A DNA stretch of 64,000 bases from NCBI GenBank assembly GCA_965217865.1, contig CBDCJO010000002.1:2976001-3040000 (forward strand), read 5' to 3'. A model generated the notes under the pieces. The model did not search any database, was not told the origin of the DNA, and saw only the letters and a list, made by a program, of their open reading frames with translations. The stretch's first letter is position 1. Each line of letters starts with the position of its first letter. Source of the DNA: Candidatus Latescibacterota bacterium (GTDB lineage Bacteria > Latescibacterota > UBA2968 > SICM01). Both the position numbers and the translations under genes were made by a program. Positions 9,447 through 62,797 of this stretch are shown here, one piece after another.

Positions 9447-10749
9447 AACGCTCGAGGACGACTCGCTTGGGTCAAAAAGAGAAAAAGCCCGAATACGGGC
9501 TTTTGGACAGGGTAGCACCTAAACTTCCAGGGTAAAGCCGGGGCGAACGAGTGCCCCAAGGTTATCCTCGATAATAACGCTCATCGTTCGATCTGAAGAC
9601 CGTTCTATATGTCAACACACGAGACCCGGTCCCTGGGACGTTATCTCGTTTTGGAGACTTTTCCGCGTGAACCCCGGTCCATGAACGGTTTGGATACCGG
9701 TCCCCAGGCCTCCCCACACGACACTGCTGTTTTCCGGACTGTCGATTGTCAAAGGCTTTGACCGAATGGCCAGGTATGATGGCCGAATCTTCTCCCATTT
9801 GGCGGCCTGGGCCTCTCGGGAAGCCGAGGCTTTTTCTTTAAGAAGACTCAGCATAGAAATGATTCCCTCCCTTGTCTTGATTTCCCTCATGGAGAGGACT
9901 TCAAATATCTCTCTGGGTGAGAGTTCGTAGGCATCCTTGCCGCGGATATTGAAACCCTTTCCAGTCAGGTAATTTACGAGCGACTCGCGCTTCAAGTTCT
10001 GTGCAACTCGTTCGTCGTCGACTCCGAAGGCGTCGACGACATCTTCTTTGCTCCGATCATTGACCAGTTCATTGAGTGTTTCCCCTGATTCCCGCATCAC
10101 CTTCCAGGGTGACCACTAACTTCCTCCAGAAGCGGCGATTCGGTCGACTGTTTCCCGGAGTACGACCCTTGTTCGAGCGAGTCGTTGCTCCCTGGAGGAT
10201 GGGGCAGCGGCGTCCTGGCGGGCTCGCTCAAAATCCTCGAGTTCGGTTTCGCGGATGACGGTTTCGTCGAGAGACTCGGGCATGGGTTCGATTTCCATCT
10301 CGGGTTTTGCAGCTTCTGGTTCAACCGGCGGGGTTTCCATGGCCATATCCGGCTCCAGGATCTCCGGGGGTTCTGATGTCAGGAATTCAGGCATTGGAAA
10401 AACGGAGGTCAAATCACCGGTCCTGTTCAACTTCTCTTTTGCCCAGATCGCCCAGATACAGATGCCGACCAGGAAGAGGGCTAAAACGCCTAAAAGCATC
10501 CTCTTTTTCCTGGGCTTTCTCGGGATTAACCTTCCCTCTTCGGCCAATCTCTTTTGTGCCCCGCGGGCAAGGTCGGGGGATCTCCAGATGGGAGAAGATC
10601 CTTTTCGGGTTGGTTCACTGAGGATCTCCGCGGCGGTTGGATCGGATTCCACCCGGCTCCTTTCGGATCTCGTACCCGTCGCCCCGACTGCCCCGGCGGC
10701 GACCATGCTCGCGATTTCCGCCCTTTTTTCGTCCCCAAAGGATGGTTCT

Positions 10750-11220
10750 TCTTCGTCGTCTTCGAAGAGGTTTTCGATGTCTTCGGGTTCGTCCTCAGCG
10801 ACGGCGGCCAGGTCGTCATCCTGGTCGGGTTCTAATTTGTCAGATTCGTCGTCTTCGAAGAGGTTTTCGATGCCCTCCTCGGGTTCGGCCTCAGCGACGG
10901 CGGCCAGGTCGTCATCCTGATCGGGTTCTAATTTTTCGGATTCGTCGTCTTCGAAGAGGTTTTCGATGTCCTCCTCGGGTTCGGCCTCAGCGACGGCGGC
11001 CAGGTCGTCATCCTGATCGGGTTCTAATTTGTCAGATTCGTCGTCTTCGAAGAGGTTTTCGATGTCCTCCTCGGGTTCGGCCTCAGCGACAGCAGCGGCA
11101 AGGTCCCCTTCCTGGTCGGGTTCTAATTTGTCAGATTCGTCGTCCTCGAAGAGGTTTTCGATGTCCTCCTCGGGTTCGGCCTCAGCGACAGCAGCGGTCA
11201 GGTCCCCTTCCTGGTCAGCA
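10750..11220 (-). repeat. Coding tandem repeat, about 5 units of 93-99 bp
   Basis: Encodes EPEEDIENLFEDDESDKLEPDQ(DD/EG)DLAA(A)VAEA repeats. Confidence 0.9.
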
Positions 11221-12537
11221 TTCTCTTCAAAAGGAGCAGCCGTGTCCACGTCAGGTACAGCTGCCAACGTTGCAATGGGCTCTTCTCCGATCGATTCCGC
11301 GGGGGAAACATCAGGGGGTTGAGCCTCTCCCGCCAGGATTAGTTCCGCTTGACGGACTTTGAGGAGATTTTTAAACTTAATCGGGATCTGAAAATCCACG
11401 TCGATGACACTCATGGGCTGGACGAAATAATCGGAAGCCCCGAGGCGCATGGCCTTCTCGATATTTTCGGTGGAGGTGCTGTTCACCAGGATCGGAATCT
11501 GACTCAGCGATGCGTCGGAAGCCGCTTCTTCAATCAATTCGAAACCGTCCTGCGAAGCGATATCCAGGTTCAACAGGGTGATACCGATATCCCCCTCTCG
11601 GAGTTTATCGAGTGCCTCTTCGCCGTTCTTGGCATCAGTGAAAGCGTATTGTTCTGTTTCAAGGACCCCTTTGAAAAGAGCAAGGTTATCTTCGTTATCA
11701 TCGATGAAAAGGATTCGGGTTTCGGATCTCTTGAAGGTTCCCTGAATCAGGTGATTTCAGATCCCGATTTAGCTCACGGAAATCGTCTATGATGCGATCG
11801 TCCACCAGTTCCTCGACGGGTGTGCCGTCATCCTTCAGGCCTCCCTCAGGGATCGCGGGGGCATACGATTCAGGCTCCTTATCACTATCCAATCCGATTG
11901 TTGGGAGCAGGGCATCGACCGAATCCGCTACTTCCAATTCCTCGATGTCCTCTCCGGAAGCATCGGCTTCTTCCACCTGCTGCTCAGAATCAGGTTCCTG
12001 TTCGGGTGACTCCGATTCCGTAAGGATCGTACCCTCCTGATCTGGAGCCCCATCGTCCAGGACCACTTCGGTACCCTCCGGAAGGGTATCGAACTCTTTT
12101 GCCTCCTCGGATCCTAAGACGTCCCCCTCGATATCGTCCCCGGCTTCCGCCATGGGTTCAACCGGTGCATCGAGCGGTTCGTCCGGCTTCTCCCCTGTTT
12201 CCTCCTCCGCAATCAAGTCGGCCTCGGCTTCCTGGGTATCGACTTGAACGGAAACAGGATCGTCCGCTGTCGTCTCAATGACGGCTTCATCCCCGATTTC
12301 TTCTCCCTCTGGGGTAACATCAGGAACTTGAGCCTCCGAACCCACCTCAGCATCCGATTCCCCTTCTTTCTCCTCCTCCTCCAAGATCGGGTCAGACGCC
12401 TCTCCTTCCCCGGCCCCTTCAGTTTTTGGGGTTTCGGGGGGTGCCAACCCCGGGTCCCCGGACTCCATGAGGGAGATCATCTGGGAGAGTTCCTGGTCAT
12501 CTTCCGACTCTTCCTGGTTTTCTCCGTCTGTACCATC

Positions 12538-33818: not shown

Positions 33819-34109
33819 TTAGGGTCCCAACCCGGGCAGGGACAGGACCGCATACCCTTTGGCGAATTCGATCTCCGCAACGGCAAAGCCTGCGCTCTGG
33901 AATTCAGAGACGAGCTCCGGTTCGTTTTGGAAATAGTGCCAGAAGTGGTCGCATTCATACACATCCCCGATCTCCAACGCCAGATTCCCCTCGAACAGCC
34001 TCGCCACGCACTGCTTGATTCGAAACCTCCATCCGTTTGGCTCTCCCTCTAAATCGTCTGCGAACTCAAGGTAGAAGAATCCATCATCGGCAAGGAACGT
34101 CCGGGCGGT
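33819..34109 (-). pseudogene. 3' remnant of a SAM methyltransferase paralogous to 48009-48888
   Basis: ARTFLADDGFFYLEF..WRFRIK..DHFWH matches the paralog; homology ends at the IS3 left end. Confidence 0.8.
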
Positions 34110-34233
34110 TGTATCTTTTGTCTGAGATCGCCCGAAAAAACGGGGGCAAGGTCGAAGCAAGATCCTGGTTGCCTGTAGGGTTGAGAAGGGATACATATTT
34201 TGGGATATCCCTGACCTCACAGGAGGAGTAAAG

Positions 34234-34569
34234 ATGGAGCAACTGTCCTCAAACAGTGACCCGGTCAAGAAGCGCAGGAGCTTGTCCCCGGAACAGAAGT
34301 ATGAGATTTTCCTTGAAGCCAGCCGGGGAGATGTTCCCATTGCACAGGTGCTGCGGAAATGGGGCATTCATTCCTCGGATCTAAAGCGTATTCGTGAGTC
34401 GGTCAAGTCCGGGGCCCTCAAGGAGTTCAAGGGTCGCCGGAGCCGCAAGCCGATGGTATCGGCTGAGGAGGTGGAGCAGCTGCGCAAAGAGCGGGCACGC
34501 CTGGAGCAAACGATCATTGAGCAATCTGTGGAACTTTCCCTGCTAAAAAAAAGTGTGAATGGGATCTGA
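34234..34569 (+). CDS. IS3 transposase OrfA (HTH, coiled coil)
   Basis: AGGAGG RBS; LSPEQKYEI HTH; A8G slippery site at 34545-34553. Confidence 0.85.
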   Translation: MEQLSSNSDPVKKRRSLSPEQKYEIFLEASRGDVPIAQVLRKWGIHSSDLKRIRESVKSGALKEFKGRRSRKPMVSAEEVEQLRKERARLEQTIIEQSVELSLLKKSVNGI

Positions 34570-34592: not shown

Positions 34593-35624
34593 GTGCAAGC
34601 TGAGGTCAAACGCGAGATCCTCTTAATGGTCCATCGGGCCAAGGAGAAAGGGGTGAAACTCACCCGTTCTTGCGAGATCCTACAGCTTCCCCTCCAGCGG
34701 TATTGTGCCTGGAGCCGGCGAGATCGAGAAGAGAAGCTGGATGGGGTGTCGGACCCGCTTTTGGATGGGAAGCCCGGGCCCGCCCCTGATGAGGCCCCAC
34801 ACGGATTGCTGAGGGAGGAGAAAGAGCAAATCCCGGCCCTCTTAAGGGATGAGACCTATGCCGATCTGCCTCCCCATCAGCTGGCGGTGGTAGCCTCAGA
34901 GAAGGGGGTAGTGCAGGCCTCGGCCTCCAGCTTCTACCGACAGGCCAGGAAAGAACGTCTGGCACGCAGGAAACAGGTGAGGACGCCGGTCAAGCAGAGC
35001 AAGCCCCAGGTCAAACCTGAAGGTCCTAATCAGGTCTGGAGCTGGGACCTGACCTACATCCCATTTTTCGGTTTGTTCCTGTATTTTACCGCCATTCTCG
35101 ACGTGTATTCCAGGAAGATCGTAGGATGGAAGCTCTCCTTCAACGCGACCGTGGAGCAGGTCAAACAGGCCTGGGATCAAGCCCTTGCCAACGAAGGACT
35201 GCTGGACCTGGACACTGGGCCCATAAGCTTGACAGCCCTCTCAGATCACGGATCTCAGATGAAGGCCAAATCGATGGCCCAATTCTTCAAGGACCTGGGC
35301 ATCTCGCAGCTGTTTGCCCGATATCAAACACCCACGGACAACGCCTGGATCGAAGCCTTTTTCCGGACATTCAAATACGACTGGCTGCGCTTCCAGGACA
35401 TCTTCACATTCCATCAACTGGAAGGCCTGATTGATTCCTTCATTCACAGCTACAACGCCGAACGCTATCACGGGGCAATACAGTATGTCACGCCTCTTCA
35501 GAGGCATAAAGGCCAGCATCAAAAGATTCTTCACCACCGACAAGGTCGAAAGGAGGAGGCTCGGCAGCGCCGCATAGAAATCAATCGGCAAAGAACATCC
35601 CAGACCATCCACAAGGCTGCCTGA
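34593..35624 (+). CDS. IS3 transposase OrfB (rve DDE), -1 frame to OrfA
   Basis: PNQVWSWDLTY, DVYSRKIVGW, SDHGSQ, DNAWIEAFFRTFK. Confidence 0.92.
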   Translation: MQAEVKREILLMVHRAKEKGVKLTRSCEILQLPLQRYCAWSRRDREEKLDGVSDPLLDGKPGPAPDEAPHGLLREEKEQIPALLRDETYADLPPHQLAVVASEKGVVQASASSFYRQARKERLARRKQVRTPVKQSKPQVKPEGPNQVWSWDLTYIPFFGLFLYFTAILDVYSRKIVGWKLSFNATVEQVKQAWDQALANEGLLDLDTGPISLTALSDHGSQMKAKSMAQFFKDLGISQLFARYQTPTDNAWIEAFFRTFKYDWLRFQDIFTFHQLEGLIDSFIHSYNAERYHGAIQYVTPLQRHKGQHQKILHHRQGRKEEARQRRIEINRQRTSQTIHKAA

Positions 35625-48008: not shown

Positions 48009-48888
48009 TTGTGTATTAGGCTAAACCGAAGAAGGCTGATGAGAGCCCGAACTAGCAGAAAGAAGGCAAACCTCCCAATTTCGGTACCCCTTATTTCCAA
48101 AGCCTTCCTTTTTACGACCTGGGGTATGGATCGGCTCCCCGGTATTCTTGGAAGGAAGCTTTCCTCCATCTTTGGAACGCTTGTGCTCATTATGTCCACA
48201 CCAAGAGAGATGGAGGAAATGGTGAAGGGATATTACGCACGACCCCGTTCTATCGAAAGGTGGGGAGATAGATTGGTTGGAACAGGGGGGAAACTATATC
48301 GGGAAGAGTCCGCCTTTGTTGCCAAATATCTAAAAGGGAAAAAGACTTGCCTTGTGTTGCAATCCGGTGGAGGACGTGAGTCGCTTGCCCTGGCGCGGCT
48401 GGGATTCGAGGTTACAGGTATCGATTGCTGCGAAGCCCTCGTCGAAAGAGCGAAGGATCACGCAAAAGCCCTATCTCTATCCTGCCGATTCGAGATCGGA
48501 GAAATGTCCGAGGGGACTCCCGCGAAGAGAAAATTCGACGCACTCTTCCTCACCCAGTACATGTATAGTGCCATTCCGACCAGGGAAAGACGTATCACTT
48601 TTTTGGAAAAGGCAAGGACCTTCCTTGCAGAGGATGGATTTTTCTACCTTGAGTTTTATTCAGATGAGGTTTTGGAGGGAAATGATTGGCGGTTCCGAAT
48701 CAAGCGGGTCCTTGCCAGGTTGTGGGGGAGAAATCAGGAATTGGAGACCGGAGATTCATATGAAGTTGATCATTTCTGGCATGATTTCAATTGTGAATCG
48801 GAGATTTTGCCAGAATTTGAGGAGGCCGAATTTGGCCGTTGTGGATTTAAATTTAGACCTTGAATTCGCCGTTCTTACCCTTCGGTAA
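48009..48888 (+). CDS. Class I SAM-dependent methyltransferase with probable 3' frameshift
   Basis: VLQSGGGRES..G.EVTGID; an extra G near 48834 moves the paralog-like tail AVVDLNLDLEFAVLTLR into another frame; start uncertain. Confidence 0.7.
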
Positions 48889-48927
48889 TTACCGTAATTC
48901 TTCGACTGCAGTCCGTCTGTGGATGGG

Positions 48928-49053
48928 AGAGGGAACGGATCTGGTTATCGGGGCGTGCCAGATCCGAAGATAACCCTTTTCGCGAAAGGTATCGAGCTCC
49001 CGGTCGGTCAGGAATGGGGGATGGAGATCAGGCATGGGTTAAAGGTGGTGGAA
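48928..49053 (-). repeat. Degenerate duplicate of the 5' end of the adjacent PhyH gene
   Basis: Shares GATAACCCTTTTCGCGAAAGGTATC..GTCGGTCAGGAATGGGGGATGGAGATCAGGCAT with 50024-50152. Confidence 0.85.
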
Positions 49054-49114
49054 TGTTAGACGAGGAAAATCTGTTTCAGAATGATCTTGACGAACAAACT
49101 AGGATTTGATCGGG

Positions 49115-49327: not shown

Positions 49328-50134
49328 TCAGTAAATCGGGGTGTCAGCCGTCCCTTGGACCGGCACATACTCCGGGAAGACGATCGGGAAGGTCATCCCC
49401 GAAGAAATATTCCGCGTAGCCGCATCGATATAGCAGACGCTGAAAGCACGACGAGGACGGTTCGTGGTATTGACTTCGGAACGATGCAGGGTCAGGTTGT
49501 CCAGGAGCACGACCTCCCCGCTTTCCAGCTCCAGGTAGAGCCGCTTCTCATCCGGGGCGTGAAGAGGGATCTCCTCGGGCGATAAATGGTCCCCATGTTC
49601 CGGGATGATGCTTTTGTGCGAGCGGGGGATGATCTGCAGGCACCCGTTTGCGACGCACGTCGGATCCAGCGCGGTCCAGACCGTGACCTTCGGCCGGATG
49701 TCCAAACCCCAACCGCTCGCGCCATCCTGGTGCCAGTTTATGGTGACGCCCTGTTCCGCGGGTTTGTTGAAGAACATCGACCGAAAGACGGAGACCCGGT
49801 CGTGGATAAGCTTCCGGGTGATATCCCGGAAAAGGGGATGCTGCATGTAGTCCCGAAAAAGGGGGTCCTGGTCAAGATCCTGGATCTTCCGGTACTTCAA
49901 CGAGGACCCCTTGAACGAACGGGTCTTTTGGGAGAGCTCCGGGTGTCCGGCCGAAGGGCAGAGCTGCATCAGCATGTGGTCGTAGCGGATGTTCCCGAGC
50001 ATGATATCATCGATGCGTTGACAGAGGGAACGGATCCGGTCATCGGGAACGACGCGCCCGAGCCGGAGATAACCCTTTTCGCGAAAGGTATCCAGCTCCC
50101 CGTCGGTCAGGAATGGGGGATGGAGATCAGGCAT
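49328..50134 (-). CDS. Phytanoyl-CoA dioxygenase (PhyH) family protein
   Basis: FREKGYL, WHQD, WTALD....NGCL.IIP.SH, LHRS..N....RRA. Confidence 0.9.
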   Translation of the reverse strand: MPDLHPPFLTDGELDTFREKGYLRLGRVVPDDRIRSLCQRIDDIMLGNIRYDHMLMQLCPSAGHPELSQKTRSFKGSSLKYRKIQDLDQDPLFRDYMQHPLFRDITRKLIHDRVSVFRSMFFNKPAEQGVTINWHQDGASGWGLDIRPKVTVWTALDPTCVANGCLQIIPRSHKSIIPEHGDHLSPEEIPLHAPDEKRLYLELESGEVVLLDNLTLHRSEVNTTNRPRRAFSVCYIDAATRNISSGMTFPIVFPEYVPVQGTADTPIY

Positions 50135-50144
50135 AGGTTAGAGG

Positions 50145-50712
50145 CGGTGAAAAGTGAGAGGTGAGACGGGAAACCAGAATTATAGAATACAGAATACAGA
50201 AGTTAGGAGAAATCAAGTCGTTTAAATTGAATATTGATGATCGAAAGACCGTCAAACGTGAGACGTGAAACGTGAAACGGAAAAGCGGGCCAACGGCCCG
50301 TGATTCCTTGGCCCAGTCCAACGGGCTGGGTTTTGAATGTGGCCGAATCGAGCGGGCTAACGGTCCGCGATCCGGATCAATCCCACACATACCGTCCATC
50401 GAAGGACATGGATTGGTGCATTGCGATGTGAAATTATCGCGGCCCTTCAGGCCGCACGACGCTATTGCTTCTCATGACCCAGGGCAGCTCGCCTGGGTTG
50501 AGGGACAACGCGCCGTTGGCGCTGAAAGAAAGCCATGACTTTAGGCTCGGTTTCTCGATTAGCTCAAAGGCTCGGGTGTCAATCGCGAAGAGTCCGCCAC
50601 AGGCGGACCCCCCAGCCCATAACCACCGGGCCCCCCTTCGACTCCACTTCGTTCCGCTCAGGGCCGGGGCTTCGACTCCGTTCCGCAAAAACCGCGGAAC
50701 TCCGCTCAGGGT
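50145..50712. repeat. Cluster of heptamer arrays and REP/REPIN-like palindromes
   Basis: (CAGAATA)n, (CGTGARA)n, GGGCCAACGGCCC..CCCAGTCCAACGGGCTGGG, CCCAGGGCAGCTCGCCTGGG..GCGCCGTTGGCGC, CCCTTCGACTCC..CCGCTCAGGG. Confidence 0.65.
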
Positions 50713-50756
50713 GTTTCCATGATGGTTTATGATATGATGATTTTTATTCGATATCG

Positions 50757-52358
50757 TTAATTCCCGAACGTGTGTTTAAGAATTTGAAAAATCCTCTTGA
50801 TGAACCATCTCCGGGGGTGTTCCTGTGTGTGGTGTGCGACCACGGCATTGGATGGGAAAACGGTCTTGAAGATGAAACGGGCTTTGTCCATAGGCCCGTG
50901 TCTCAAGGCGAGGTGGACGAAATAGCTCAACCCGGAGCGGGTGCGGCCTTTCGCCAGGCGGCGCAGGAAGAGGCGCTCGCCGGATGTCAGATGCGCAGGT
51001 TTGAGGGCGGCGAGGGTTTCATCGGGAACAGGGGCGCCCATCTGATCTCGAACGACCCGTAGGGGGAGATAGGCCATCCGGTCCAGGCGGAATCTCCGCG
51101 CCGTCTCCAGGACCCGCTCCCAGTCTTCGGCTCCCATGCCGTCCCCGATCGCCCAGGCCAGGTCTACGACCTGGAGGGGCTTCCACATCGAGTGGGCTGG
51201 CCTCATGGCGTGTTCGCACAGATAGACGATGAGGTGATGTGGGGCGACGCGCAGGGTTTCCGTCCCGTCTACAGACAAGGGAAGCGCTTCTTCCCAGATT
51301 TCGTCCATACCCACAAAATCTCGATATGCATCGGTCGGGACGGAGGTGTTCACCAAATGCCAGTGGAGGTGTATGGACGGTGAAAGGAGATCCGCCTTCC
51401 GATAATCCAGGGTGGAGAGGGATGTGGATTGATGGGGGTCGATCCCTCCGATTGGTCCGTCAATCGGGAGATAGCCCAGATCGTTCAGGACACGGTCCGC
51501 GGCACGGAGATGCCCAGGACTGACGAGGAGGTCCACGTCGTTCATCGGGCGGGTCGCGGGGCTCGGGTAGACGGTCTCGGCCAAGGCGACACCTTTCAGG
51601 ACCATCGTGGAGATCCCTGCGTCGGTGATGGTTTTCAGGACCTCTCCGAAGGCGTTGATCATGACGACATACCGCGCGGCGGAACCATAGTAGGCGCGTG
51701 AAAGGGCCCGGGACACTTCGAGCGGAAGTTCCGTCCCGGAACGCTGGAATTGAAAATAGAGGAGCGGGGCCAGGTCCCGGGTTACGGCGACGGAGACCAG
51801 GTCTTCCCATTCGGGTTCGGATTCGGGGAGAAGCCCGTCCACACGGACGGACGGTCCGCAGAGTGAAACGACCCGCAGGAGGTCCCCCCCGTCCCGGTCG
51901 AGCCGCTCGCGGATCGCAGTGCCCCATCCGCCCAGGGTCCTGGAGATTCGCCTGCCGATCGGGATACGCGCTCCCGGCCAGCGCATGGCACGCTGTGCTC
52001 CGCGGTCGAGGCGGACCCGCCTGCCGCGTCGTTCCAGGATGTCGATCCGGCCGAGCAGGTCGGACTCGGGGACCTCCTCCTCCTCCAGGCACTCGGGCGA
52101 ATCCCCCTGGATTTTATAGGCCCCACGTCTCCTCCCCTTCACCCGATGGACGCACGGCCCCCCGGGCGAACAATAGAGGACCACGTCGCCGGGTCCGGGT
52201 TTCTCGGCACTCAGGGGATCGACGATCAGGATGTCTCCGGACCGGATGAAGGGCTCCATGCTGGTCCCGGTCGCCCGGAATCGGAAGGGCTGGCGTCGAT
52301 GATTGAGTGTGGTCTGAGCCAGGTCGAGGAATTCGGTTGAAGAAGGAATTATGAGCAT
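50757..52358 (-). CDS. S24/S26-type peptidase fused to NTP_transf_5-type nucleotidyltransferase
   Basis: N-terminal GTSMEP..GD, VHRV, QGD; C-terminal VLKG..LA..VY....RPMNDVDLLV, LHW; start chosen at MLIIPSS. Confidence 0.85.
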   Translation of the reverse strand: MLIIPSSTEFLDLAQTTLNHRRQPFRFRATGTSMEPFIRSGDILIVDPLSAEKPGPGDVVLYCSPGGPCVHRVKGRRRGAYKIQGDSPECLEEEEVPESDLLGRIDILERRGRRVRLDRGAQRAMRWPGARIPIGRRISRTLGGWGTAIRERLDRDGGDLLRVVSLCGPSVRVDGLLPESEPEWEDLVSVAVTRDLAPLLYFQFQRSGTELPLEVSRALSRAYYGSAARYVVMINAFGEVLKTITDAGISTMVLKGVALAETVYPSPATRPMNDVDLLVSPGHLRAADRVLNDLGYLPIDGPIGGIDPHQSTSLSTLDYRKADLLSPSIHLHWHLVNTSVPTDAYRDFVGMDEIWEEALPLSVDGTETLRVAPHHLIVYLCEHAMRPAHSMWKPLQVVDLAWAIGDGMGAEDWERVLETARRFRLDRMAYLPLRVVRDQMGAPVPDETLAALKPAHLTSGERLFLRRLAKGRTRSGLSYFVHLALRHGPMDKARFIFKTVFPSNAVVAHHTQEHPRRWFIKRIFQILKHTFGN

Positions 52359-52359
52359 A

Positions 52360-52870
52360 GAGAAGGGAAATGGAAAATAGAAAGTGTAAAATGGAAAAGT
52401 GTAAGACCCTTCCACCCATCCCCACCGGAATACAGAATACAGAAGTCAGAAGAAGACCGGGAATCAACTTAGTCGTCAGACATGAATCGTGAGACGGCAA
52501 AAGGCAGTAGCAGTGGCAGGAAAAGCAAAGGCAGCCCGAGCGTCAGGGGTCAGAGGAAATTGAATATTGACGATTGAAAGACCGTGAAACGTGAGACAAA
52601 AAGCAGTAGCAGTGGCAGGAAAAAGCACAGGCACCCCCAGTTTCAGGTGTCGGAGATCAGGGGCCAGAGAAATTGAAGATTGACGATTGAAAATTGAAAG
52701 ATTGAAGATCAAAGAGTCCATAAGCACATAAGAAAATTCTGCGTTTTTCAAATATTCAATTCTCCGATATTCAATATTGATGGGGGTCAGAGAAATTGAA
52801 GATTGAGATCGAAGCGAGATCCATATGGACTTTAGAAAGTCCTGGGTTGTTCCAATATTCAATGAGGTTG
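52360..52870. repeat. Mosaic heptamer-repeat insert inside the RiPP cassette
   Basis: Two GCAGTAGCAGTGGCAGGAAAAGC modules and two AGAGAAATTGAAGATTGA..CCATA..AGAAA..AATATTCAAT modules. Confidence 0.8.
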
Positions 52871-52874
52871 TGGG

Positions 52875-53165
52875 TCAGGGGTCGTTGACGGGCAAAACGG
52901 CGCGGACGGTCTCCAGGCGGGTGATGAAATCCCGGACGTCGGTCTCGGCCTGTTCGGGTCCGACTTCGAATCGCTCGACGATCCCGTCCATGATATCCCG
53001 GACGGTTTTCTCTCCGTCCAGCAGGTTCCAGATGGCGGCTCCGACTTCGTTCAGGGTGAAGACGCTCCCCTTCGGTCCGTCGATGGCGCGAACCGGGACC
53101 AAAATCATCTCGCCCGCGATCTCCCGGAAGATGAAGTCGGGATTTCGGGCATAGCGTGCAATCAC
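52875..53165 (-). CDS. PqqD-family RiPP recognition element (RRE)
   Basis: FREIAGE.ILVP, FTLNEVG..IW.LLDG, F.V..EQA..DV..F; GTG start overlaps the precursor stop. Confidence 0.92.
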   Translation of the reverse strand: MIARYARNPDFIFREIAGEMILVPVRAIDGPKGSVFTLNEVGAAIWNLLDGEKTVRDIMDGIVERFEVGPEQAETDVRDFITRLETVRAVLPVNDP

Positions 53166-53353
53166 GAAGTTGCCGCCGAGTTGGTACCCTTTGATTTAGT
53201 GACCTGTTTGCACTTCTTTTTGCAAAAGCCGGTTTCTTGGTTTCCATCCTTTGCGCTGGTGGCGTTACTCTTGCAAGGGTGCAGGACGGCCTGGCTGGTC
53301 TCAAGGAGGACTTCGTGGATCTCGGGCCGACTGTAATGCATACGCTCAGCCAT
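53162..53353 (-). CDS. Putative RiPP precursor peptide (63 aa)
   Basis: AAAGGAG RBS 7 nt before ATG; MAERMHYSRPEIHEVLLETSQAVLHPCKSNATSAKDGNQETGFCKKKCKQVTKSKGTNSAATS; overlaps both neighbouring genes. Confidence 0.8.
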   Translation of the reverse strand: MAERMHYSRPEIHEVLLETSQAVLHPCKSNATSAKDGNQETGFCKKKCKQVTKSKGTNSAATS

Positions 53354-54256
53354 GTTCGATCTCCTTTGCGATGTGGTCGGTAATTTCCGGCGAGTTGACA
53401 AAACCGAGCTTTTCAGTCCAGTCCTGCGCGAGGTCGCCGATCCTGAAGAGTGCCGCACAGCGGGCGTCGTCGTTCCACACGGGGAGGAAGGTCTGGGACA
53501 GGAGCCCTGCGAAGTTTAAAGAGGCGGGTTGTTGACAGGTCCTGTTTCGCCTGTCGTGATGAATGATGTAGATCCGGCTCAGCGGGACGCCCCCCGGGGC
53601 GACCGCGAAAGCGGAACCGGGCCAGGGGGTGCCGTAGACCGTCCACGCCCCGTCCCGCTTTCGAAGGATGGTGTGTTCGTCCCCGATGACAATCGCGTCC
53701 GGGCGATTCGTTGCGAAGAGGCGGGAGAGTGTGCTCTTGCCCGTCCCCGAGGCGCCCGCAAAGACGATGCCGCGGCCCCCCAGGTCAAAGGCAGCGGCAT
53801 GAAAAGCATCAGGCCGTCCTCTGTCCCCAGCCTGTCGGCCAGGAGGATGCGGAGGAGGGGCTCCAGGATCGTTGCCAGGTTCCGACGCCGGGGACGCTTG
53901 CTTTGTGGGCGACCGAACAGATCTCGCTGTCCCTCGGTTCCGAGCCTGATCACCCCTTCCTTCAAACCCGCGTCCATCTCGGCCACGCGGTTGGGACGGG
54001 CGGTGAGCGGGTCGCAGATCTCAAATAACCGCTGACCGTTCTCGCTGTGAAGACGCCAGTGGCCGGGCATCTCGAAGATGGGTTTCTCAGGCCGGGGGGA
54101 AATCTCTCCGGTCTCGACGACCCGAAGGCGGATATCTTCCGAAGGGAAGCCGCCAATGAATCGTCCGTAGAGACCAGGGTTCCGTTCGAGGCGGACGCCT
54201 TCGAGGTGGAGCTTCACGCCGATGTCCGCGACCCGCAAGTCCAGTGTGTTTTTCAA
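53346..54256 (-). CDS. HPr-kinase-related P-loop protein, frameshifted at an A4 run (53802-53805)
   Basis: Adding one T on - gives GLMLFHAAAFDLGGRGIVFAGASGTGKST..IGDE..VYGTPW, open to TGA at 53346; TTG start uncertain. Confidence 0.75.
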
Positions 54257-54291
54257 GGTGAATGCCCGGAGATAGAGCCCATTAGTTGTCG

Positions 54292-55424
54292 TTAATTCGG
54301 GAGGCCGATCTGAAGCAGGCCGCCCGTCATTGCCGGCGCCCCGAAGGCCTCCGCCCTGAGATGGGTGATTTGACAGAGATAATCGACCGGCTCCTCCTGG
54401 TCGCCGTGCTCCAGGAGGGAGGTGCCGGGGCAGGTGCTGCAGGCGGAGATCAACTCGCAGGAGCGGCAGCGGGTCGGCCGTTCGCGCTTCGTTTCGCGAA
54501 GCCTGGGAAAATATTCGTAGAATCCCTCCTTGAAGCTTTTTTCCCTGAGGTTGTGTCCGTTGTGCCGAGAGATGAGACACATCTCCAGGTCCCCGTAGGG
54601 GTCGACCACGAAGTTGGTTGTCCCGGCCCCGCAGAGATAGAGGTTGTCCGTGTCCGCAATGCCCAAGTTTTCGGGCAGGAACTCTTCGCGCCAGGCCTCG
54701 GCCTTCTCCGGATCGGCCATCTCTAACGCCACCACATCCTCCGGGGACATCCGTGTCCCGCAGGGCTTGTGGGAACAGTCGATGCGGGGGTGGATCTCCG
54801 GGTCGTACTTGAAATCCACTTCGAGCTCGCGCGCCATTTGTTCCATCTCCGGGACCTCGTGCTGATTGAGGCCGAGCCCCACGGTCTTCAGGCTCATCTG
54901 AATATTCCGTTCCCGCAGGAGCCGGATTCCCCGGAGGCATTTTTTGTAAGCACCGGGTACCCCGGTAACCTTTTCATAGGTCTCCTCAGAGGCCCCGTAA
55001 AGGGTGATCTCGATCTTGAAGGGGGGGTCTCGGCCAGGAAATCCACGGTGTCGGGCGTGAGCATGCAGCCGTTGGTGAACAGGGTGATCAGGAGTCCGCT
55101 CCGCTTGGCGTAGAGGTAGATGTCCCGAAAATCTCGGCGCAGGAGAGGCTCCCCCCCGGTGATGAGAAGAAAGAGGCATCCCTCCACCACCATAGCGTCG
55201 ATGACACGGCAGCACTCCTCGTAGGTCAGCTCCCGGTTACGGGCGTCAGGATCGTTGGCCGGGAGGTTGACATAGCAGTGGACGCACGCCAGGTTGCACC
55301 GGTGCGTCAGTTCCAGGGTCCCGTCGAGCGGGAACCGTTCCTCATCCGCTTTTCCGTGGACGGCCGCGCTGAAGTCGAGGTAGCGACGATGGGGAATCGT
55401 CACCTCTTCCTGTTCTGACGTCAT
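54292..55424 (-). CDS. Radical SAM/SPASM protein, frameshifted at a G7 run (55021-55027)
   Basis: CNLACVHC, TGGEP, FTNG; one extra C on - joins ETPP to FKIEITLYG; SPASM C.AG..VDPYG....C and CRSCELISACSTCPG..C; GAGGAGG RBS. Confidence 0.88.
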
Positions 55425-55498: not shown

Positions 55499-56764
55499 TC
55501 ATTTCTTATCCGGGAGATCGTCTTCGGAGATCACGTCGGTGATGTGCAGGATCCGGGTTTCTCGCAGATTGATGGTCTGGATGTTGCGGACTTTCTTTTC
55601 CTGAGAATCGTAGAGGATCTCGACGGAGGGCCTGAGGGGATGGGATTCGTAGGTCTCGACGACCCTCCCTACGGCGCCTGAGTTGAGCTTGACGTAGCTT
55701 TTCAGCGGGAAGGCGGACAGCTTCTGCAGGAGGACCTTGAGGACCTGCTGGCTGAACGTGCCCCGCTGATTCTGAAGCATAAACCTGACCGCGTCGAAAG
55801 GCAGCATCCCCCGGCGGTCGGGCCTGGACCGGGTAAGCCCTGCGAAGCAGTCGGCCACGGCGATGATCCGAGCGTATTCTTCGATCTGGTCCCCCTTCAG
55901 ACCCCGGGGGTAGCCGCTGCCGTCTTCCCGTTCCTGCTCCTGGTAGGCGACATCCGCGAGCCACTGGTAGTCCTTACCGAGCTTGGACAGGATCTCGTAG
56001 CCGTATTGGGGATGCCGCTGCATCTCCGCCTTCTCCTCGTTGGTCCATTTTCCCTTCGTCAGGATCGACTCGGGGAGTCGGGTCATTCCGATGTCGTGCA
56101 GGAGGGCGGCCAGACCGAGGTCCACCAGGCGATGATCCTCGAAGTTCATTCCCTCACCGATCCGGAGGGCATAGACGCCCACATTGACGGAGTGGGTGAC
56201 CAGGGCCGCGCTAAACCCGGCGTCCTGTTTGGCCTCCTGGGCATAGATCGCCTGCTTGTAAAGCAGGTCTGTCGCCCCCTTCATGCCGATGATTCGGGTC
56301 AGGATGGCCAGGGCAACGTCCACGGAGAGAGTCGTCCCCTGTTTGGCGGAGTTGATAACCCCCCCCACGAAGGAGTAGGCCCGCTGGTAGAGGGCATTCA
56401 CCGCCTCCTCATCCACCTCCGGAGGCTTTTCCGGCTCCGGGGGAGGGGGGGCAGTCTCCGGGGCCTGCGGGGCAGGTGCCCCGGCCGGCTCAGGCGCTGC
56501 GGGGGCCCCACGGGCCCCAATGGGACGGGGTAAGGCGTCTGCGACCTCTGCCCCGCTCGTGTCCAGACGTTCATTGATTCGGCGGACTTGGTCGGCAAGG
56601 GAGACGACCGCTCCCAGCTCATCGTAAATCTGCCGAAGCACGGGAAGATCCCGCATCTGGGGGGAGTCATCCCCGGCTTTGAAGGGCTGAGGGGGCTCCG
56701 GTCGAAGGGGGGCATTGCTGATGGCCGTTTCCCCTTTCCGGACCATGTCTGAAAGGCGTGGCAT
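55499..56764 (-). CDS. HD-GYP domain protein (partly degenerate)
   Basis: HSVNV, LHDIG, HP..G, QEQEREDGSGYP, IIAVAD. Confidence 0.85.
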   Translation of the reverse strand: MPRLSDMVRKGETAISNAPLRPEPPQPFKAGDDSPQMRDLPVLRQIYDELGAVVSLADQVRRINERLDTSGAEVADALPRPIGARGAPAAPEPAGAPAPQAPETAPPPPEPEKPPEVDEEAVNALYQRAYSFVGGVINSAKQGTTLSVDVALAILTRIIGMKGATDLLYKQAIYAQEAKQDAGFSAALVTHSVNVGVYALRIGEGMNFEDHRLVDLGLAALLHDIGMTRLPESILTKGKWTNEEKAEMQRHPQYGYEILSKLGKDYQWLADVAYQEQEREDGSGYPRGLKGDQIEEYARIIAVADCFAGLTRSRPDRRGMLPFDAVRFMLQNQRGTFSQQVLKVLLQKLSAFPLKSYVKLNSGAVGRVVETYESHPLRPSVEILYDSQEKKVRNIQTINLRETRILHITDVISEDDLPDKK

Positions 56765-58654: not shown

Positions 58655-60667
58655 ATGCTTGTCGATGACCTGAGACGGACCAAACGCATCCGTATCCATA
58701 ACGATTCCCCGACCGACGGGGCGCATCATTTCGGTTTCTCGGTCTACGCGGAGACCCTCGCAAAGATCATCGCCGATCGGGCGAACCGGACGCCGTTGAC
58801 CTTGGCGATCAACGGGGCCTGGGGGAGCGGCAAGACAACATTGATGCGGACGATCCGCGAGAAACTGAATCAGATATCGGCCGAGGTGGAGGGGAACGGG
58901 GGAGACGGCATCTTTCGATCCAGTCGATCCGTCTGGTTTAATGCCTGGAAGTACTCTGACCGGGATGCCATCCTGGTCGTGTTAATCGAAGAGATCGTGT
59001 CCCAGATCGCATCCGGCGGCATGCCGGAACAGCGGCTGCAGGGCATGCGTCGGAGCGAGGGTGGAATGGACTGGGCTGGAATCTCCCGGGCCATGGACGA
59101 CCTTGTGGGGAAGACCGGAGTACCTGAGCTCAAACGCTTTCTGGAGAACGATACTGCGATCGTCAAAAATATCCCGCTGCTGCGGGAGTTTGAACACTTT
59201 CTGGATCGGTTGATCAACTGGTGCATCGTTCGGAATCGTGGAAACGGCCCGGAGGAATTCCCGGATGCGACGGGCGTCCTGACCATATTCATCGACGACC
59301 TCGACCGATGCCAGCCGGACCGGGTTTCCCGGGTTCTGGAGACCATCAAACTCTTCCTGGATCGACCCGGCTGCGTATTCGTGATCGGCATGGACAGCGA
59401 GATCGTGGAGAAAGCGGTCAAGGCTCAATATGTGGAGATCGAGGGCTTCGATGAACACGCTTACATGGACAAGATCATCCAGGTGCAGTTCAACCTCCCG
59501 CCCATCCGGGCTGAACACATCCAGTCGTTTATACAGGAGGATCTCATCGGGACGCAGGCAAAAGACAATCCCCTGTCCAGATATCTCGATGTGGTTTCCG
59601 AGGCCGTTCGCCGGAACCCCAGGACGGTCAAGCGGTTTTTGAACACCTTTTCTATCCAGCGAAGCCTGGCCGAGTCTCAGGGATTGCTCAAAAACGGAGG
59701 GATGGACGAAGACCTTCTCGCCAAGTGGATCATTCTCTCTTTCGCTTTCGAGTCGTTCATGCAGCGCGTCCTTCAGAGGCCGCTTCTGTTGCCGGAGATG
59801 CAGGATGCCCTCTCAAGCAGGGATGGAAGCGGGGATCTTTTGATGACCCCCCCGCCCCACCTGCGGGAATTCCTCGAAGACCAGGCCCTCGTCGATATCA
59901 TCCAGCAAGGAAAACCGTTCCCTACGGATGAGGAGGAGCTCGCGATATACATCCACCTGAGCGAGTCGACCCGGCGCAGCAGCCTCTTGGGGAAGGACGG
60001 GGAGGAGGGGGGCGGAGTCTATCGCGCGGAGGAGGGGGCCGCCATGGTTCAGGTGGAGGCCGGACGGTTCCTCATGGGCGAAGCCAAGAAACCCGTTTCG
60101 CTCGAAAGCTTCGAAATCGACGTTACGCCGGTTACACATCGACAGTTCCAGCGGTTCATCGACGACATCGACTATACCCACCTTCCGGACAGCTGGCCGG
60201 AAGGTACCTATCCCCCGGAGAAGGCCGATCACCCGGTGGTCGGCATCTCGCTTCACGACGCGAAGACATATGCCAAATGGGCGGGAAAGCGTCTTCCCAC
60301 CGAAACCGAGTGGGAGAAGGCCGCCCGTGGCCCCAACGGAAGGTTGTTTCCCTGGGGCAACACCTTCAACCGCTATAACTGCAACAACAAAGAGCTCGGC
60401 CTCCACACCACGACCGAGGTTGGCCACTTCCCCAACGGGGCCAGCCTGTACGGATGCTACGACCTGGTCGGCAACGTTTGGGAATGGACGGACACAGACG
60501 TATTTCCGGATAATAACGAAGTCAAAGTGATCCGGGGGGGCTCCTGGTCAAGTCCACGTGAGGGTGTCGTTGCAACCACACGAGCTTACTCCCGTGCGGG
60601 CGAACGTCGGCAAGACCTGGGCTTCCGCTGTTGTCGCAGTTCGAATGAGGATGATTTTGTCGTGTGA
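58655..60667 (+). CDS. KAP-family P-loop NTPase fused to an FGE-sulfatase (SUMF1/CLec) domain
   Basis: GAWGSGKT, WFNAW.Y, FIDDLDRC, KIIQV.F.LP, NPR..KR; RLPTE.EWEKAARG, GNVWEW, RGGSW, GFRC. Confidence 0.9.
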   Translation: MLVDDLRRTKRIRIHNDSPTDGAHHFGFSVYAETLAKIIADRANRTPLTLAINGAWGSGKTTLMRTIREKLNQISAEVEGNGGDGIFRSSRSVWFNAWKYSDRDAILVVLIEEIVSQIASGGMPEQRLQGMRRSEGGMDWAGISRAMDDLVGKTGVPELKRFLENDTAIVKNIPLLREFEHFLDRLINWCIVRNRGNGPEEFPDATGVLTIFIDDLDRCQPDRVSRVLETIKLFLDRPGCVFVIGMDSEIVEKAVKAQYVEIEGFDEHAYMDKIIQVQFNLPPIRAEHIQSFIQEDLIGTQAKDNPLSRYLDVVSEAVRRNPRTVKRFLNTFSIQRSLAESQGLLKNGGMDEDLLAKWIILSFAFESFMQRVLQRPLLLPEMQDALSSRDGSGDLLMTPPPHLREFLEDQALVDIIQQGKPFPTDEEELAIYIHLSESTRRSSLLGKDGEEGGGVYRAEEGAAMVQVEAGRFLMGEAKKPVSLESFEIDVTPVTHRQFQRFIDDIDYTHLPDSWPEGTYPPEKADHPVVGISLHDAKTYAKWAGKRLPTETEWEKAARGPNGRLFPWGNTFNRYNCNNKELGLHTTTEVGHFPNGASLYGCYDLVGNVWEWTDTDVFPDNNEVKVIRGGSWSSPREGVVATTRAYSRAGERRQDLGFRCCRSSNEDDFVV

Positions 60668-61469: not shown

Positions 61470-62797
61470 GGATCTTCACGCAGAAGTATGGATAGATAGA
61501 AAAGCTCCACGAATTTTCAGGGCAAAGTAGTCGAAGTCTCTGAAGCCGAAGGCGATGCGCTTGATGACTTTGATCTTGTTGTTTATGCCCTCAACGATGC
61601 TTGTGTGGATGGGGTAGTCGCAGTGTGCCAGGATGCTTTCCTTGTGATATAGCAGCTTCCTGGTGAAGCGTATCAACGGCTTGATCCCGGAGTCAAGGGC
61701 TCTTTGACACCAGGCGTCGAGCCATCTGGCTGCCCAGGCTTTGCGTTTGTAGATCCAGACTCGTTTCAGGTCCTCTTTGAGGATGTAGACGGTGTTCAAA
61801 CGTTGATTGATGGCCAGGAGATCGCGGAGTCGGGCTGGCTCATCGCGGTCGGTTAGCAAGTTCTTTCTGTTTTTGAGAAGTAGGTATTTGGTTCCTCGGA
61901 TGATAGCCTTGTTGTCCTTGGAGGCTTTTCGACATTCATCGATCCGAACCCGATCGATTACTTTCTGGGCATAGATCTGGAGCAGGTGGAAGGGATCATA
62001 GACCGTGGCAGCGTCAGGACAATGCTTGCGCTTCGCCTTGGCATAGCCGCGCCAAGCGTCCATCGCGATGGCCTGGATCCGGCTGCACTTTCCAGGGCCC
62101 AGCGCCTCGAAGAATGGATCCAGTGCTTCGGCGTTGCGGCCTTTGCCAACATATAGGACTTGTCCTGTTCCTGCATCAGCTACTGTAGTACCATAATCCT
62201 GGCCGCGTTTGACGGCGAACTCGTCAATGGCCAGCAGCGAGGCCTCAGTATCGCCTACGGCAGGCAAGTCGTCCTGTAAGGCCTTCTTGTCGATCTGTTT
62301 AACCACACTCCAGTGCAACCTGAACTGCTGGGCAATCGCTTTGATCGACCGGATTTCTCTGCAGGCCAAAGCTACAGCTCCAGCCAAGCGTTTGGTGTAA
62401 CCAACACGAGGTTCCACCCAATCCAGATACTCAGTCCGAACGCCGCATGTCGCACAGCGTATCCGGCACTGGGAGAACTCGATCCAGACACGACCGAAGG
62501 GTCCGAAACTCAGATCCTTGACCGAACGTAGGCGGGAATCATAGCAAGATCGATACGTCCGACCACAGGTGCAGCGGTACTCCTTTTCCCGTCGCGAGAC
62601 CTCTATCCAAAGTGTCGAGAGATCCTCGCGGAACCTCAGCTTGATCACATAAAATCCTTGCAGACCAACCAGCCTGTCGATATAATCCTGTATAGCCATC
62701 GGGATTCTCCTTTCGTCAGGTTAGGTGCGTTACCCAACTGTAGGAGAAAACCGGTGGCTTTTCTACATTATTGATCCACTCTTAAGCGTGAAGAACC
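61470..62797 (-). mobile_element. ISL3-family insertion sequence (1328 bp)
   Basis: TIRs GGATCTTCACGC / GGTTCTTCACGC; 8-bp TSD AAAATTGA (61462-61469 and 62798-62805). Confidence 0.95.
61476..62699 (-). CDS. ISL3 transposase
   Basis: Zn finger CTCG..CATCG, AIDEF, AMD, YDPFH, EGINNKIK.IKR.AFGFR. Confidence 0.95.
   Translation of the reverse strand: MAIQDYIDRLVGLQGFYVIKLRFREDLSTLWIEVSRREKEYRCTCGRTYRSCYDSRLRSVKDLSFGPFGRVWIEFSQCRIRCATCGVRTEYLDWVEPRVGYTKRLAGAVALACREIRSIKAIAQQFRLHWSVVKQIDKKALQDDLPAVGDTEASLLAIDEFAVKRGQDYGTTVADAGTGQVLYVGKGRNAEALDPFFEALGPGKCSRIQAIAMDAWRGYAKAKRKHCPDAATVYDPFHLLQIYAQKVIDRVRIDECRKASKDNKAIIRGTKYLLLKNRKNLLTDRDEPARLRDLLAINQRLNTVYILKEDLKRVWIYKRKAWAARWLDAWCQRALDSGIKPLIRFTRKLLYHKESILAHCDYPIHTSIVEGINNKIKVIKRIAFGFRDFDYFALKIRGAFLSIHTSA

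Follow-up and report, generated by a model that had tools for sequence, protein, structure and literature searches.

A frameshifted radical SAM peptide-modification cassette in a Latescibacterota genome and its intact relatives in uncultured phyla

The DNA analyzed here (the window) is a stretch of 64,000 nucleotides from a Candidatus Latescibacterota bacterium (contig CBDCJO010000002.1), whose genome (G000; 6.4 Mb, 96% complete) carries a gene cassette for a peptide that is synthesized ribosomally and modified post-translationally (RiPP). The cassette combines a radical S-adenosylmethionine (rSAM) enzyme with a SPASM domain, an HPr-kinase-like peptide kinase, a precursor peptide, a stand-alone RiPP recognition element (RRE), and a fusion of an S26 peptidase with a nucleotidyltransferase (NTase). 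We propose that the copy in the window is frameshifted and likely dead, and that intact versions in other genomes make a leader-cleaved peptide with one or more Cys thioether links and a C-terminal phosphoserine; the rough probability that we assign to this reading is 0.55. The support, which is sequence-based, consists of the parts themselves, their joint conservation, the constant position of the first core Cys relative to the leader motif, the C-terminal Ser, the catalytic motifs, and two real frameshifts. The parts are as follows.

54292..55424, minus strand: radical SAM/SPASM maturase, pseudogene (Radical_SAM 55 bits; SPASM TIGR04085 35 bits, cut-off 27)
53346..54256, minus strand: HPr-kinase-like peptide kinase, pseudogene (weak HprK_rel_A/B and ScmC matches, 18-19 bits)
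53162..53353, minus strand: precursor peptide, 63 aa (Y7-x-x-P10 leader motif, Cys27, Cys44, Cys48, C-terminal Ser63)
52875..53165, minus strand: stand-alone RRE of the PqqD family (PqqD 68 bits)
52359..52874, no strand: repeat-rich spacer of ~520 nt between the RRE and fusion genes
50757..52358, minus strand: fusion of an S24/S26 peptidase and a PF14907 (NTP_transf_5) domain, intact, 533 aa (34 and 143 bits)

All five genes are on the minus strand in the order rSAM, kinase, precursor, RRE, and fusion, as a first-pass annotation of the window had described. The coupling that it had proposed for kinase, precursor, and RRE is borne out by overlaps of 8 nt (kinase/precursor) and 4 nt (precursor/RRE, GTGA); 35 nt separate the rSAM and kinase genes. 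The same annotation had found no Asn-synthetase-like cyclase, B2 protease, or ABC exporter in the window. This agrees with our searches of G000, where none of the nine Asn_synthase matches is inside the window, the lasso B2 peptidase (PF13471) has no match in the 96% complete genome, and none of the 11 ABC exporter matches is in or near the window.

In the rSAM gene, one base is missing near 55027-55028, which leaves an N-terminal piece with CxxxCxxC and GGE and a C-terminal piece with the seven-Cys SPASM domain, each 73% identical to the intact ortholog of locus L041. The kinase gene, whose TTG start at 54256 was placed by alignment to a relative (G001), has two surplus bases near 53802, so that the frame changes immediately ahead of the part with the catalytic His, GxSGxGKST, and DE. 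The first-pass annotation had left these splits unstated, although its proposed test spoke of a "repaired" rSAM. The alleles were compared in contigs, not raw reads, from 8 of 22 listed sequencing runs, whose library type is unrecorded; runs contributing small shares (X16-X22, one of them an RNA run at 0.06) were left aside. Contigs of runs X1 and X5 from one study and of X3 and X8 from another carry the frameshifted alleles, span both breaks, and align to the window without gaps. Runs X7, X9, and X15, from three other studies, carry open frames, with two bases fewer near 53802 and one more near 55027-55028, and the X9 contig is ~98% identical to the window. Nothing from run X14 aligned to the window, which proves nothing either way. 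The source sample may be among the frameshift-matching runs, but both studies agree. The breaks in the rSAM and kinase genes are real features of the DNA of the strain; an assembly error as their cause was rejected on the basis of the same gapless alleles in four runs of two studies.

It is very improbable that the locus still functions in this strain, be it that the frameshifts are assembly errors after all or that they are bypassed by slippage at adjacent short runs. Both breaks are at or beside short homopolymers (C7 and T4 on the coding strand), and the two genes are otherwise devoid of stop codons and large deletions. However, beyond the recurrence of identical alleles, the base lost from the rSAM gene is not part of the seven-base run, bypass would have to occur twice independently, and an adjacent methyltransferase gene, described below, looks broken too. 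No second rSAM, kinase, or precursor of the cassette family was found in G000. Because both frameshifts are real and no backup genes were found, the window copy is likely dead, and the strain, with rSAM and kinase as genuine pseudogenes, likely makes no product. Intact orthologs occupy the same genomic place in relatives, so the window copy is likely a recent pseudogene. In L041, a single contig contains genes for an HD-GYP protein, rSAM, kinase, precursor, RRE, an inserted enolase-type protein at the position of the repeat spacer of the window, the fusion protein, PhyH, and YebC; an HD-GYP-like gene (55499-56764) likewise precedes the window cassette. In G001, intact orthologs are split over two contigs, and the S26-NTase gene is on a separate contig.

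The search with the rSAM protein gave 21 loci in genomes and 40 in metagenomes, under record titles of Nitrospirota, Acidobacteriota, Verrucomicrobiota, Chloroflexota, Poribacteria, and Omnitrophota, and at least 150 rSAM clusters at 50% identity score at least 358 bits. Genomes with a match to the rSAM profile numbered 9 of 168 in the same phylum as the window, 67 of 301 in an Omnitrophota sample, and 1 of 151 in the phylum of L020, the last being the centre genome only. Two sets of loci were used to count neighbors. Among the 61 loci mapped in the first set, the 16 with at least 3.5 kb on both sides were counted, and these contain the precursor in 15, RRE in 14, kinase in 14, S26 in 12, NTase in 4, and methyltransferase in 2. 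The second set comprises 40 longer loci chosen for their long contigs, 39 from the 67 Omnitrophota genomes and one from G168. Here, the kinase is found in 39 loci, RRE in 37, precursor in 34, S26 in 30, and NTase in 30, with all five beside the rSAM in 24; an ABC exporter occurs in 11, and the number of rSAM copies is one in 15 loci, two in 6, three in 18, and five in 1. Since gene order varies between loci, the linkage goes beyond synteny. The lack of a conserved precursor beside homologous cassettes had been named in the first-pass annotation as a finding that would speak against the system; a precursor is present in 34/40 and 15/16 loci. The cassette is thus a real and widespread RiPP gene set that has no name. 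The literature searched, which left most subscription journals aside, contained no described product or account of it; a term search of the RRE-Finder paper (PMC7470986) returned no mention of the kinase or the nucleotidyltransferase, and the cassette proteins reached no curated family cut-off apart from that of SPASM TIGR04085.

Several loci have further features. A second type of locus in the same phylum (L090, L091, L093, L094, and L095) has the order RRE-rSAM-kinase-NTase, with no precursor or S26 gene found in the locus; L090, L091, and L093 follow an HD-GYP-like gene, like the window cassette. Huge open reading frames (ORFs; 1,200-2,350 aa) for apparently secreted or surface-bound proteins adjoin the cassette in L009, L011, L012, L014, L016, L018, L019, and L021. 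In L045 (976-5551), a lasso-type cluster (NTase, cyclase-like gene, precursor, kinase, and RRE) is directly upstream of the cassette, like the pairing of lasso clusters with those for linear polyphosphorylated peptides (LPPs).

The window precursor is 50-56% identical to its orthologs in L004, L041, and L046. We compared 101 distinct precursors, 56 from an initial collection and 45 from a later one, after dropping two rows with masked letters. P10, C27, and C44 are invariant in the 56 aligned precursors of the initial collection. A pattern placed 86 of the 101 in register, the other 15 being partial or having variant leaders. Within these 86, the first core Cys follows the Y/W/F-x-x-P motif by 20 or 21 residues in 77, Lys comes directly after it in 61, Leu, Val, or Ala occupies position -3 in 75, and Gly or Ala occupies position -1 in 54. 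The family motif is YxxP...E-x-[AV]-[LV]-x-[GA]-C-K. The C-terminal residue is Ser in 92/101 (Thr in 5, Val in 2, Ile in 1, and Asn in 1), whereas Ser makes up only 9% of core residues. Only at L020 does the lack of a kinase coincide with a precursor ending in Val, and that genome has kinases at another locus (L162); the precursor of L009 ends in Asn with a kinase present. The precursor profile had no match in the Protein Data Bank (PDB). We set aside a lipobox-like interpretation of the sequence ahead of the first Cys: 33/86 fit, and there is no hydrophobic signal region. Short precursor-like ORFs with YxxP or FxxP leaders and Cys, missed by the profile, were seen in L089 (2600-3950) and L025 (1-700); they end in Tyr and Lys.

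The intact rSAM ortholog has a confidently predicted fold (pLDDT 89). Its nearest solved structures are SkfB, SuiB, MoaA, PqqE, BlsE, and CteB at 16-21% identity, and the best PDB match by both sequence and fold is the sactisynthase SkfB. Of 133 sequences, 109-133 keep each of the seven SPASM Cys, all of which pair one to one with SPASM Cys of the thioether synthase CteB (5wgg); the reference has no conserved eighth Cys. In CteB, the first auxiliary cluster reportedly has a site that is open to the substrate thiol. Cys chelation at such a cluster site is described as the working model for NxxcB and sactisynthases (PMC9389541). The synthase models for sactipeptides and ranthipeptides all stayed under their cut-offs (AlbA 71/850 and StsB 78/625 on the intact ortholog; SkfB 39/300 and PapB 14/340 on the window rSAM pieces), and the ESM Atlas returned unnamed Radical SAM clusters only. 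In a tree of 134 near-full-length sequences out of 161 matches, the intact ortholog groups with L041-L043 (support 1.0) inside mixed phyla, from which we draw no conclusion on origin.

The kinase family keeps the His, the P-loop, and the acidic pair, which are the residues needed in BsfK (PMC10368454) and PsmK (PMC6993621); against PDB sequences, it gave chance matches only. The RRE family profile is nearer to lasso B1 proteins (TbiB1, E 5.5e-13) than to PqqD (4.3e-07). The N-terminal part of the fusion protein is a SipW-type S26 peptidase with Ser33, His71, and Asp86, in which no membrane anchor was seen. His71 and Asp86 are invariant, and Ser33 is found in 18/22 sequences with Cys in the other 4. 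The PF14907 part has Asp274 and Asp276, and this DxD is invariant (18/18). The predicted model shows both domains (pLDDT 85.5); the fold search gave no better than weak matches to NTase and S24/S26 proteins (best E 6e-05). The nearest named homolog is from a Ca. Handelsmanbacteria metagenome-assembled genome (56% identity). The fusion is rarer than the cassette, with eight full-length or nearly full-length proteins among 21 matches in a search that scored 7,997 candidates only. A second, truncated copy with 94-99% DNA identity is present in L005 (8158-8794; G000:C2, about 1,028,160-1,028,790), where it adjoins a transposase-like ORF; a 192-nt internal deletion removes the catalytic His/Asp region, and the joined form is present in runs X1, X3, and X7. 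In L006 (6279-10919), a PF14907 domain opens a 1547-aa ORF with an NTPase-like remainder, and an ABC exporter gene follows.

In the pathway that we propose for intact members, the RRE would very probably bind the YxxP leader and present the peptide, as in lasso and LPP systems. The kinase would probably phosphorylate, or polyphosphorylate, the terminal Ser, as PsmK does. The rSAM enzyme may, at slightly better than even odds, bind a core Cys at the open site of the first auxiliary cluster and link it to a carbon of another residue, a candidate acceptor being the Lys that follows the first Cys; this thioether chemistry is inferred. The S26 domain, given the precursor by the RRE as LppS is, most likely removes the leader. 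The cut could, somewhat tentatively, fall just before Cys27, and the predicted core would then have 37 residues and an unmodified mass of 3835.86 Da. The fused NTase might add a sugar or nucleotide to the phosphate, an equally tentative step by analogy with the requirement for PsmN in hexosylation, and the optional methyltransferase may add a methyl group. In the window strain, the kinase and rSAM steps would be impossible unless the frameshifts were bypassed. Two studies give precedents for the tailoring steps: LppS needs S29/H68/D93 and its RRE, LppN and PbaN belong to PF14907 (PMC13381572), and PsmN needs its DxD for hexosylation (PMC6993621).

Several observations weigh against this pathway. 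LppK (PMC13381572) and BsfK (PMC10368454) phosphorylate core Ser3, not the C-terminal end, and deletion of lppN changed nothing (PMC13381572); the window core also has a Ser at position 3. The NTase is missing from 12 of the 16 long-flank loci of the first set, and the window cassette has no exporter nearby. The Pro that precedes Cys27 in the window precursor (2/56) is atypical for a signal-peptidase site. The spacing from the first to the second Cys is 8-22 residues with no fixed value, no acceptor is conserved, and the cores hold 1-5 Cys. A Cys-containing pattern served as the seed of the precursor set, which was then enlarged with a profile, and its related members are not independent, so that the counts overstate the conservation. 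The rSAM enzyme shares no more than 21% identity with any solved structure, SuiB, MoaA, PqqE, and BlsE score about equal to SkfB, and the top NCBIfam matches are the decarboxylases MftC (113 bits) and AhbD (108 bits). These last scores favor a variant of the pathway in which the rSAM enzyme oxidizes the register-fixed Cys (formylglycine or thioaldehyde, anSME-like), forms C-C links, or decarboxylates the phosphorylated C-terminus like MftC, while the Cys form a disulfide or bind a metal. The variable Cys spacing, the 20/86 cores with just two Cys, and the three rSAM paralogs in 18/40 loci, which suggest more than one reaction, point the same way. We consider this variant unlikely: the MftC and AhbD scores are all less than half of their cut-offs, the seven-Cys pattern fits CteB, and precursors that end in Val, Ile, or Asn still have an rSAM gene, so the rSAM enzyme does not strictly require the terminal Ser as its substrate. 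We retain thioether linkage with a phosphorylated C-terminal Ser as the preferred reading. The hybrid pathway of the first-pass annotation is supported for the family, given the conserved precursor, the Ser end (92/101), and an S26 peptidase that works with RRE, kinase, and NTase in LPP biosynthesis, but not for the window copy with its rSAM and kinase pseudogenes.

The closest studied system is that of the LPPs of Bacillota (Popov et al., Nat Commun 2026, PMC13381572). LPP clusters contain an S26 peptidase (SpI), RRE, HprK, NTase, and an exporter, and leader cleavage by SpI was demonstrated to depend on the RRE. The cassette has the same four helper enzymes. Both systems share a discrete RRE, a YxxP leader, an HprK-like kinase, a SipW-type S26 peptidase (Ser/His/Asp; Ser33/His71/Asp86 of the cassette match LppS S29/H68/D93), and a PF14907 NTase, and neither needs a lasso cyclase. 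The window kinase has the features that mark an LPP kinase, but it is frameshifted. Unlike LPP clusters, the cassette includes rSAM/SPASM enzymes (one to several) and conserves Cys in the core, its conserved Ser is at the C-terminus rather than Ser3, and S26 and NTase are fused in the window; the rSAM and the Cys predict a cross-linked product, whereas LPPs are linear. Only YxxP of the LPP precursor motif YxxPxVLxHQxIxFETxxS recurs, HQxIxFET being absent from the cassette leader; the LPP cluster has an MsbA-like exporter, in contrast to the window cassette, and the cassette is found outside Bacillota. The words "radical" and "SPASM" are absent from the main text of the LPP paper (PMC13381572), and Radical_SAM is confined to a single column of its supplementary domain matrix.

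SynChlorMet (TIGR04248-TIGR04252), for which we found database models and no paper, shares with the cassette a PqqD-family RRE, rSAM/SPASM enzymes, an HPr-kinase-like protein, a small Cys peptide, and, in L015, an S26 gene. It is quite improbable that the locus is merely a divergent member of SynChlorMet or of the LPPs that needs no new name, even though the former shares these parts and the latter has the same four helper proteins. The intact rSAM ortholog scores 73 and 76 bits against ScmE and ScmF (cut-off 400), and the window cassette has one rSAM only. The kinase scores 20 against ScmC (cut-off 125), and the ScmD score is 46 (cut-off 100). The ScmA precursor model (TIGR04252) has no match at the window precursor and none over its cut-off in G000. 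That model also misses the true SynChlorMet locus of L015 and is therefore narrow. In L015, a true ScmD/E/F/C cassette is beside one cassette of the window family, as a separate unit. The main text on LPPs mentions no radical SAM enzyme, and the LPP precursor motif lacks Cys. We conclude that the cassette works like an LPP system with an added rSAM enzyme yet is a member of neither LPP nor SynChlorMet. The models for HPr-rel-A, HPr-rel-B, and GeoRSP (TIGR04352, 04353, 04355, 04302, and 04303) gave no score over their cut-offs. A likely SynChlorMet precursor with a YxxP leader, several Cys, and a Gly/Ser-rich sequence, undetected by TIGR04252, was seen at L015:9870-10120.

Ranthipeptide and sactipeptide synthases (CteB, SkfB, PapB, and NxxcB) share with the cassette the seven-Cys SPASM domain that aligns with CteB, a Cys-containing precursor, and RRE dependence (PMC9389541). 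Phosphorylated lasso peptides (paeninodin; pseudomycoidin, PMC6993621; Bsf, PMC10368454) share the kinase motifs, the C-terminal Ser, a PF14907 NTase, and a B1-like RRE. The cassette has neither the macrolactam cyclase nor the B2 peptidase of lasso clusters, with rSAM and S26 proteins instead. It differs from the ranthipeptide and sactipeptide systems in its low identity (at most 21%) and stand-alone RRE, and no model of theirs comes near its cut-off. We know of no kinase, S26, or NTase tailoring in those systems. The cassette precursor also has neither the CxxxD-like nor the six-Cys pattern of those systems. The term "undescribed" in the first-pass annotation must be narrowed, as four of the five parts have been described since the LPP work and SynChlorMet combines similar parts; it stands insofar as no family cut-off was reached and no described product was found in the literature searched.

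Two further genes near the cassette were considered.

48009..48863, plus strand: Class I SAM methyltransferase, likely a displaced cassette accessory (profile from cassette-embedded methyltransferases)
49328..50134, minus strand: PhyH-type dioxygenase, not counted in the pathway (synteny in close relatives only)

The methyltransferase profile was built only from five cassette-embedded genes of other genomes (L023, L024, L027, L131, and L140), and the gene at 48009-48863 is its top match in all of G000 (124 bits; the next scores 76). The gene is 1.9 kb from the cassette on the opposite strand, and its start codon is uncertain. Its last ~20 residues match homologs in another frame, indicating an apparent frameshift near 48829, where one X7 contig lacks one base. 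Sequence comparison suggests that it is likely a displaced sixth part of the cassette, which the first-pass annotation had missed. It is absent from L041 and hence accessory at most. A reading in which the S26-NTase gene and the methyltransferase are unrelated neighbors, with rSAM, kinase, precursor, and RRE as the true unit, draws on the 520-nt repeat gap in the window, the inserted gene in L041, and the separate contig in G001, and on the occurrence of the methyltransferase in only 5 of about 100 loci. It has a very low probability, as S26 is beside the rSAM in 30/40 and 12/16 loci and NTase in 30/40, and both are core genes in LPP clusters. PhyH follows the fusion gene in L037 and L041, but L007-L027 contain no match, L041 is the only one among L040-L079, and G000 has ~30 paralogous matches; PhyH was rejected as a pathway member and attributed to local synteny.

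The summed depth reaches ~1,100 in the repeats at 50140-50740 and 52360-52870, with 130-470 in the spacer, versus 5-38 in the cassette genes, so these repeats are likely abundant elsewhere in the genome or community. Two gene fragments were also seen in the window: one at 48889-49060, a copy of phyH's 5' end (89% over 107 nt), and one at 33819-34367, part of a second methyltransferase gene (60%). Judged by their motifs, the ORFs at 58655-60667, 61476-62699, 34593-35624, and 10116-11573 would encode a fusion of a P-loop NTPase with a sulfatase-modifying-factor-like domain, two transposase-like proteins, and an acidic protein with repeats that begins with a receiver-like part.

New in the window are a verified pseudogenized copy whose intact alleles exist in near-identical strains, a fusion of peptidase and NTase, and a methyltransferase that is likely displaced; the cassette joins LPP- and lasso-type tailoring to an uncharacterized rSAM clade. 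More tentatively, and on balance somewhat unlikely, the intact members might form a new RiPP class, in which this clade would act on the register-fixed Cys, the N-terminus after the signal-peptidase cut, with chemistry unlike that of sactipeptides and ranthipeptides, while the other end would become a glycosyl- or nucleotidyl-phosphoserine and the fusion would couple leader removal to tail decoration, in about one-fifth of Omnitrophota genomes and many uncultured phyla. The rSAM family is large and, in the literature searched, is without a curated model or described product. Because the window copy is a real pseudogene, the intact orthologs are the ones to study, and the intact alleles in strains ~98% identical provide a natural loss-of-function pair. 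The natural S26-NTase fusion is a convenient single protein for studying PF14907 transfer, and a cassette that joins radical cross-linking to phospho(glyco) tailoring should lead directly to a new rSAM reaction and to what PF14907 enzymes transfer.

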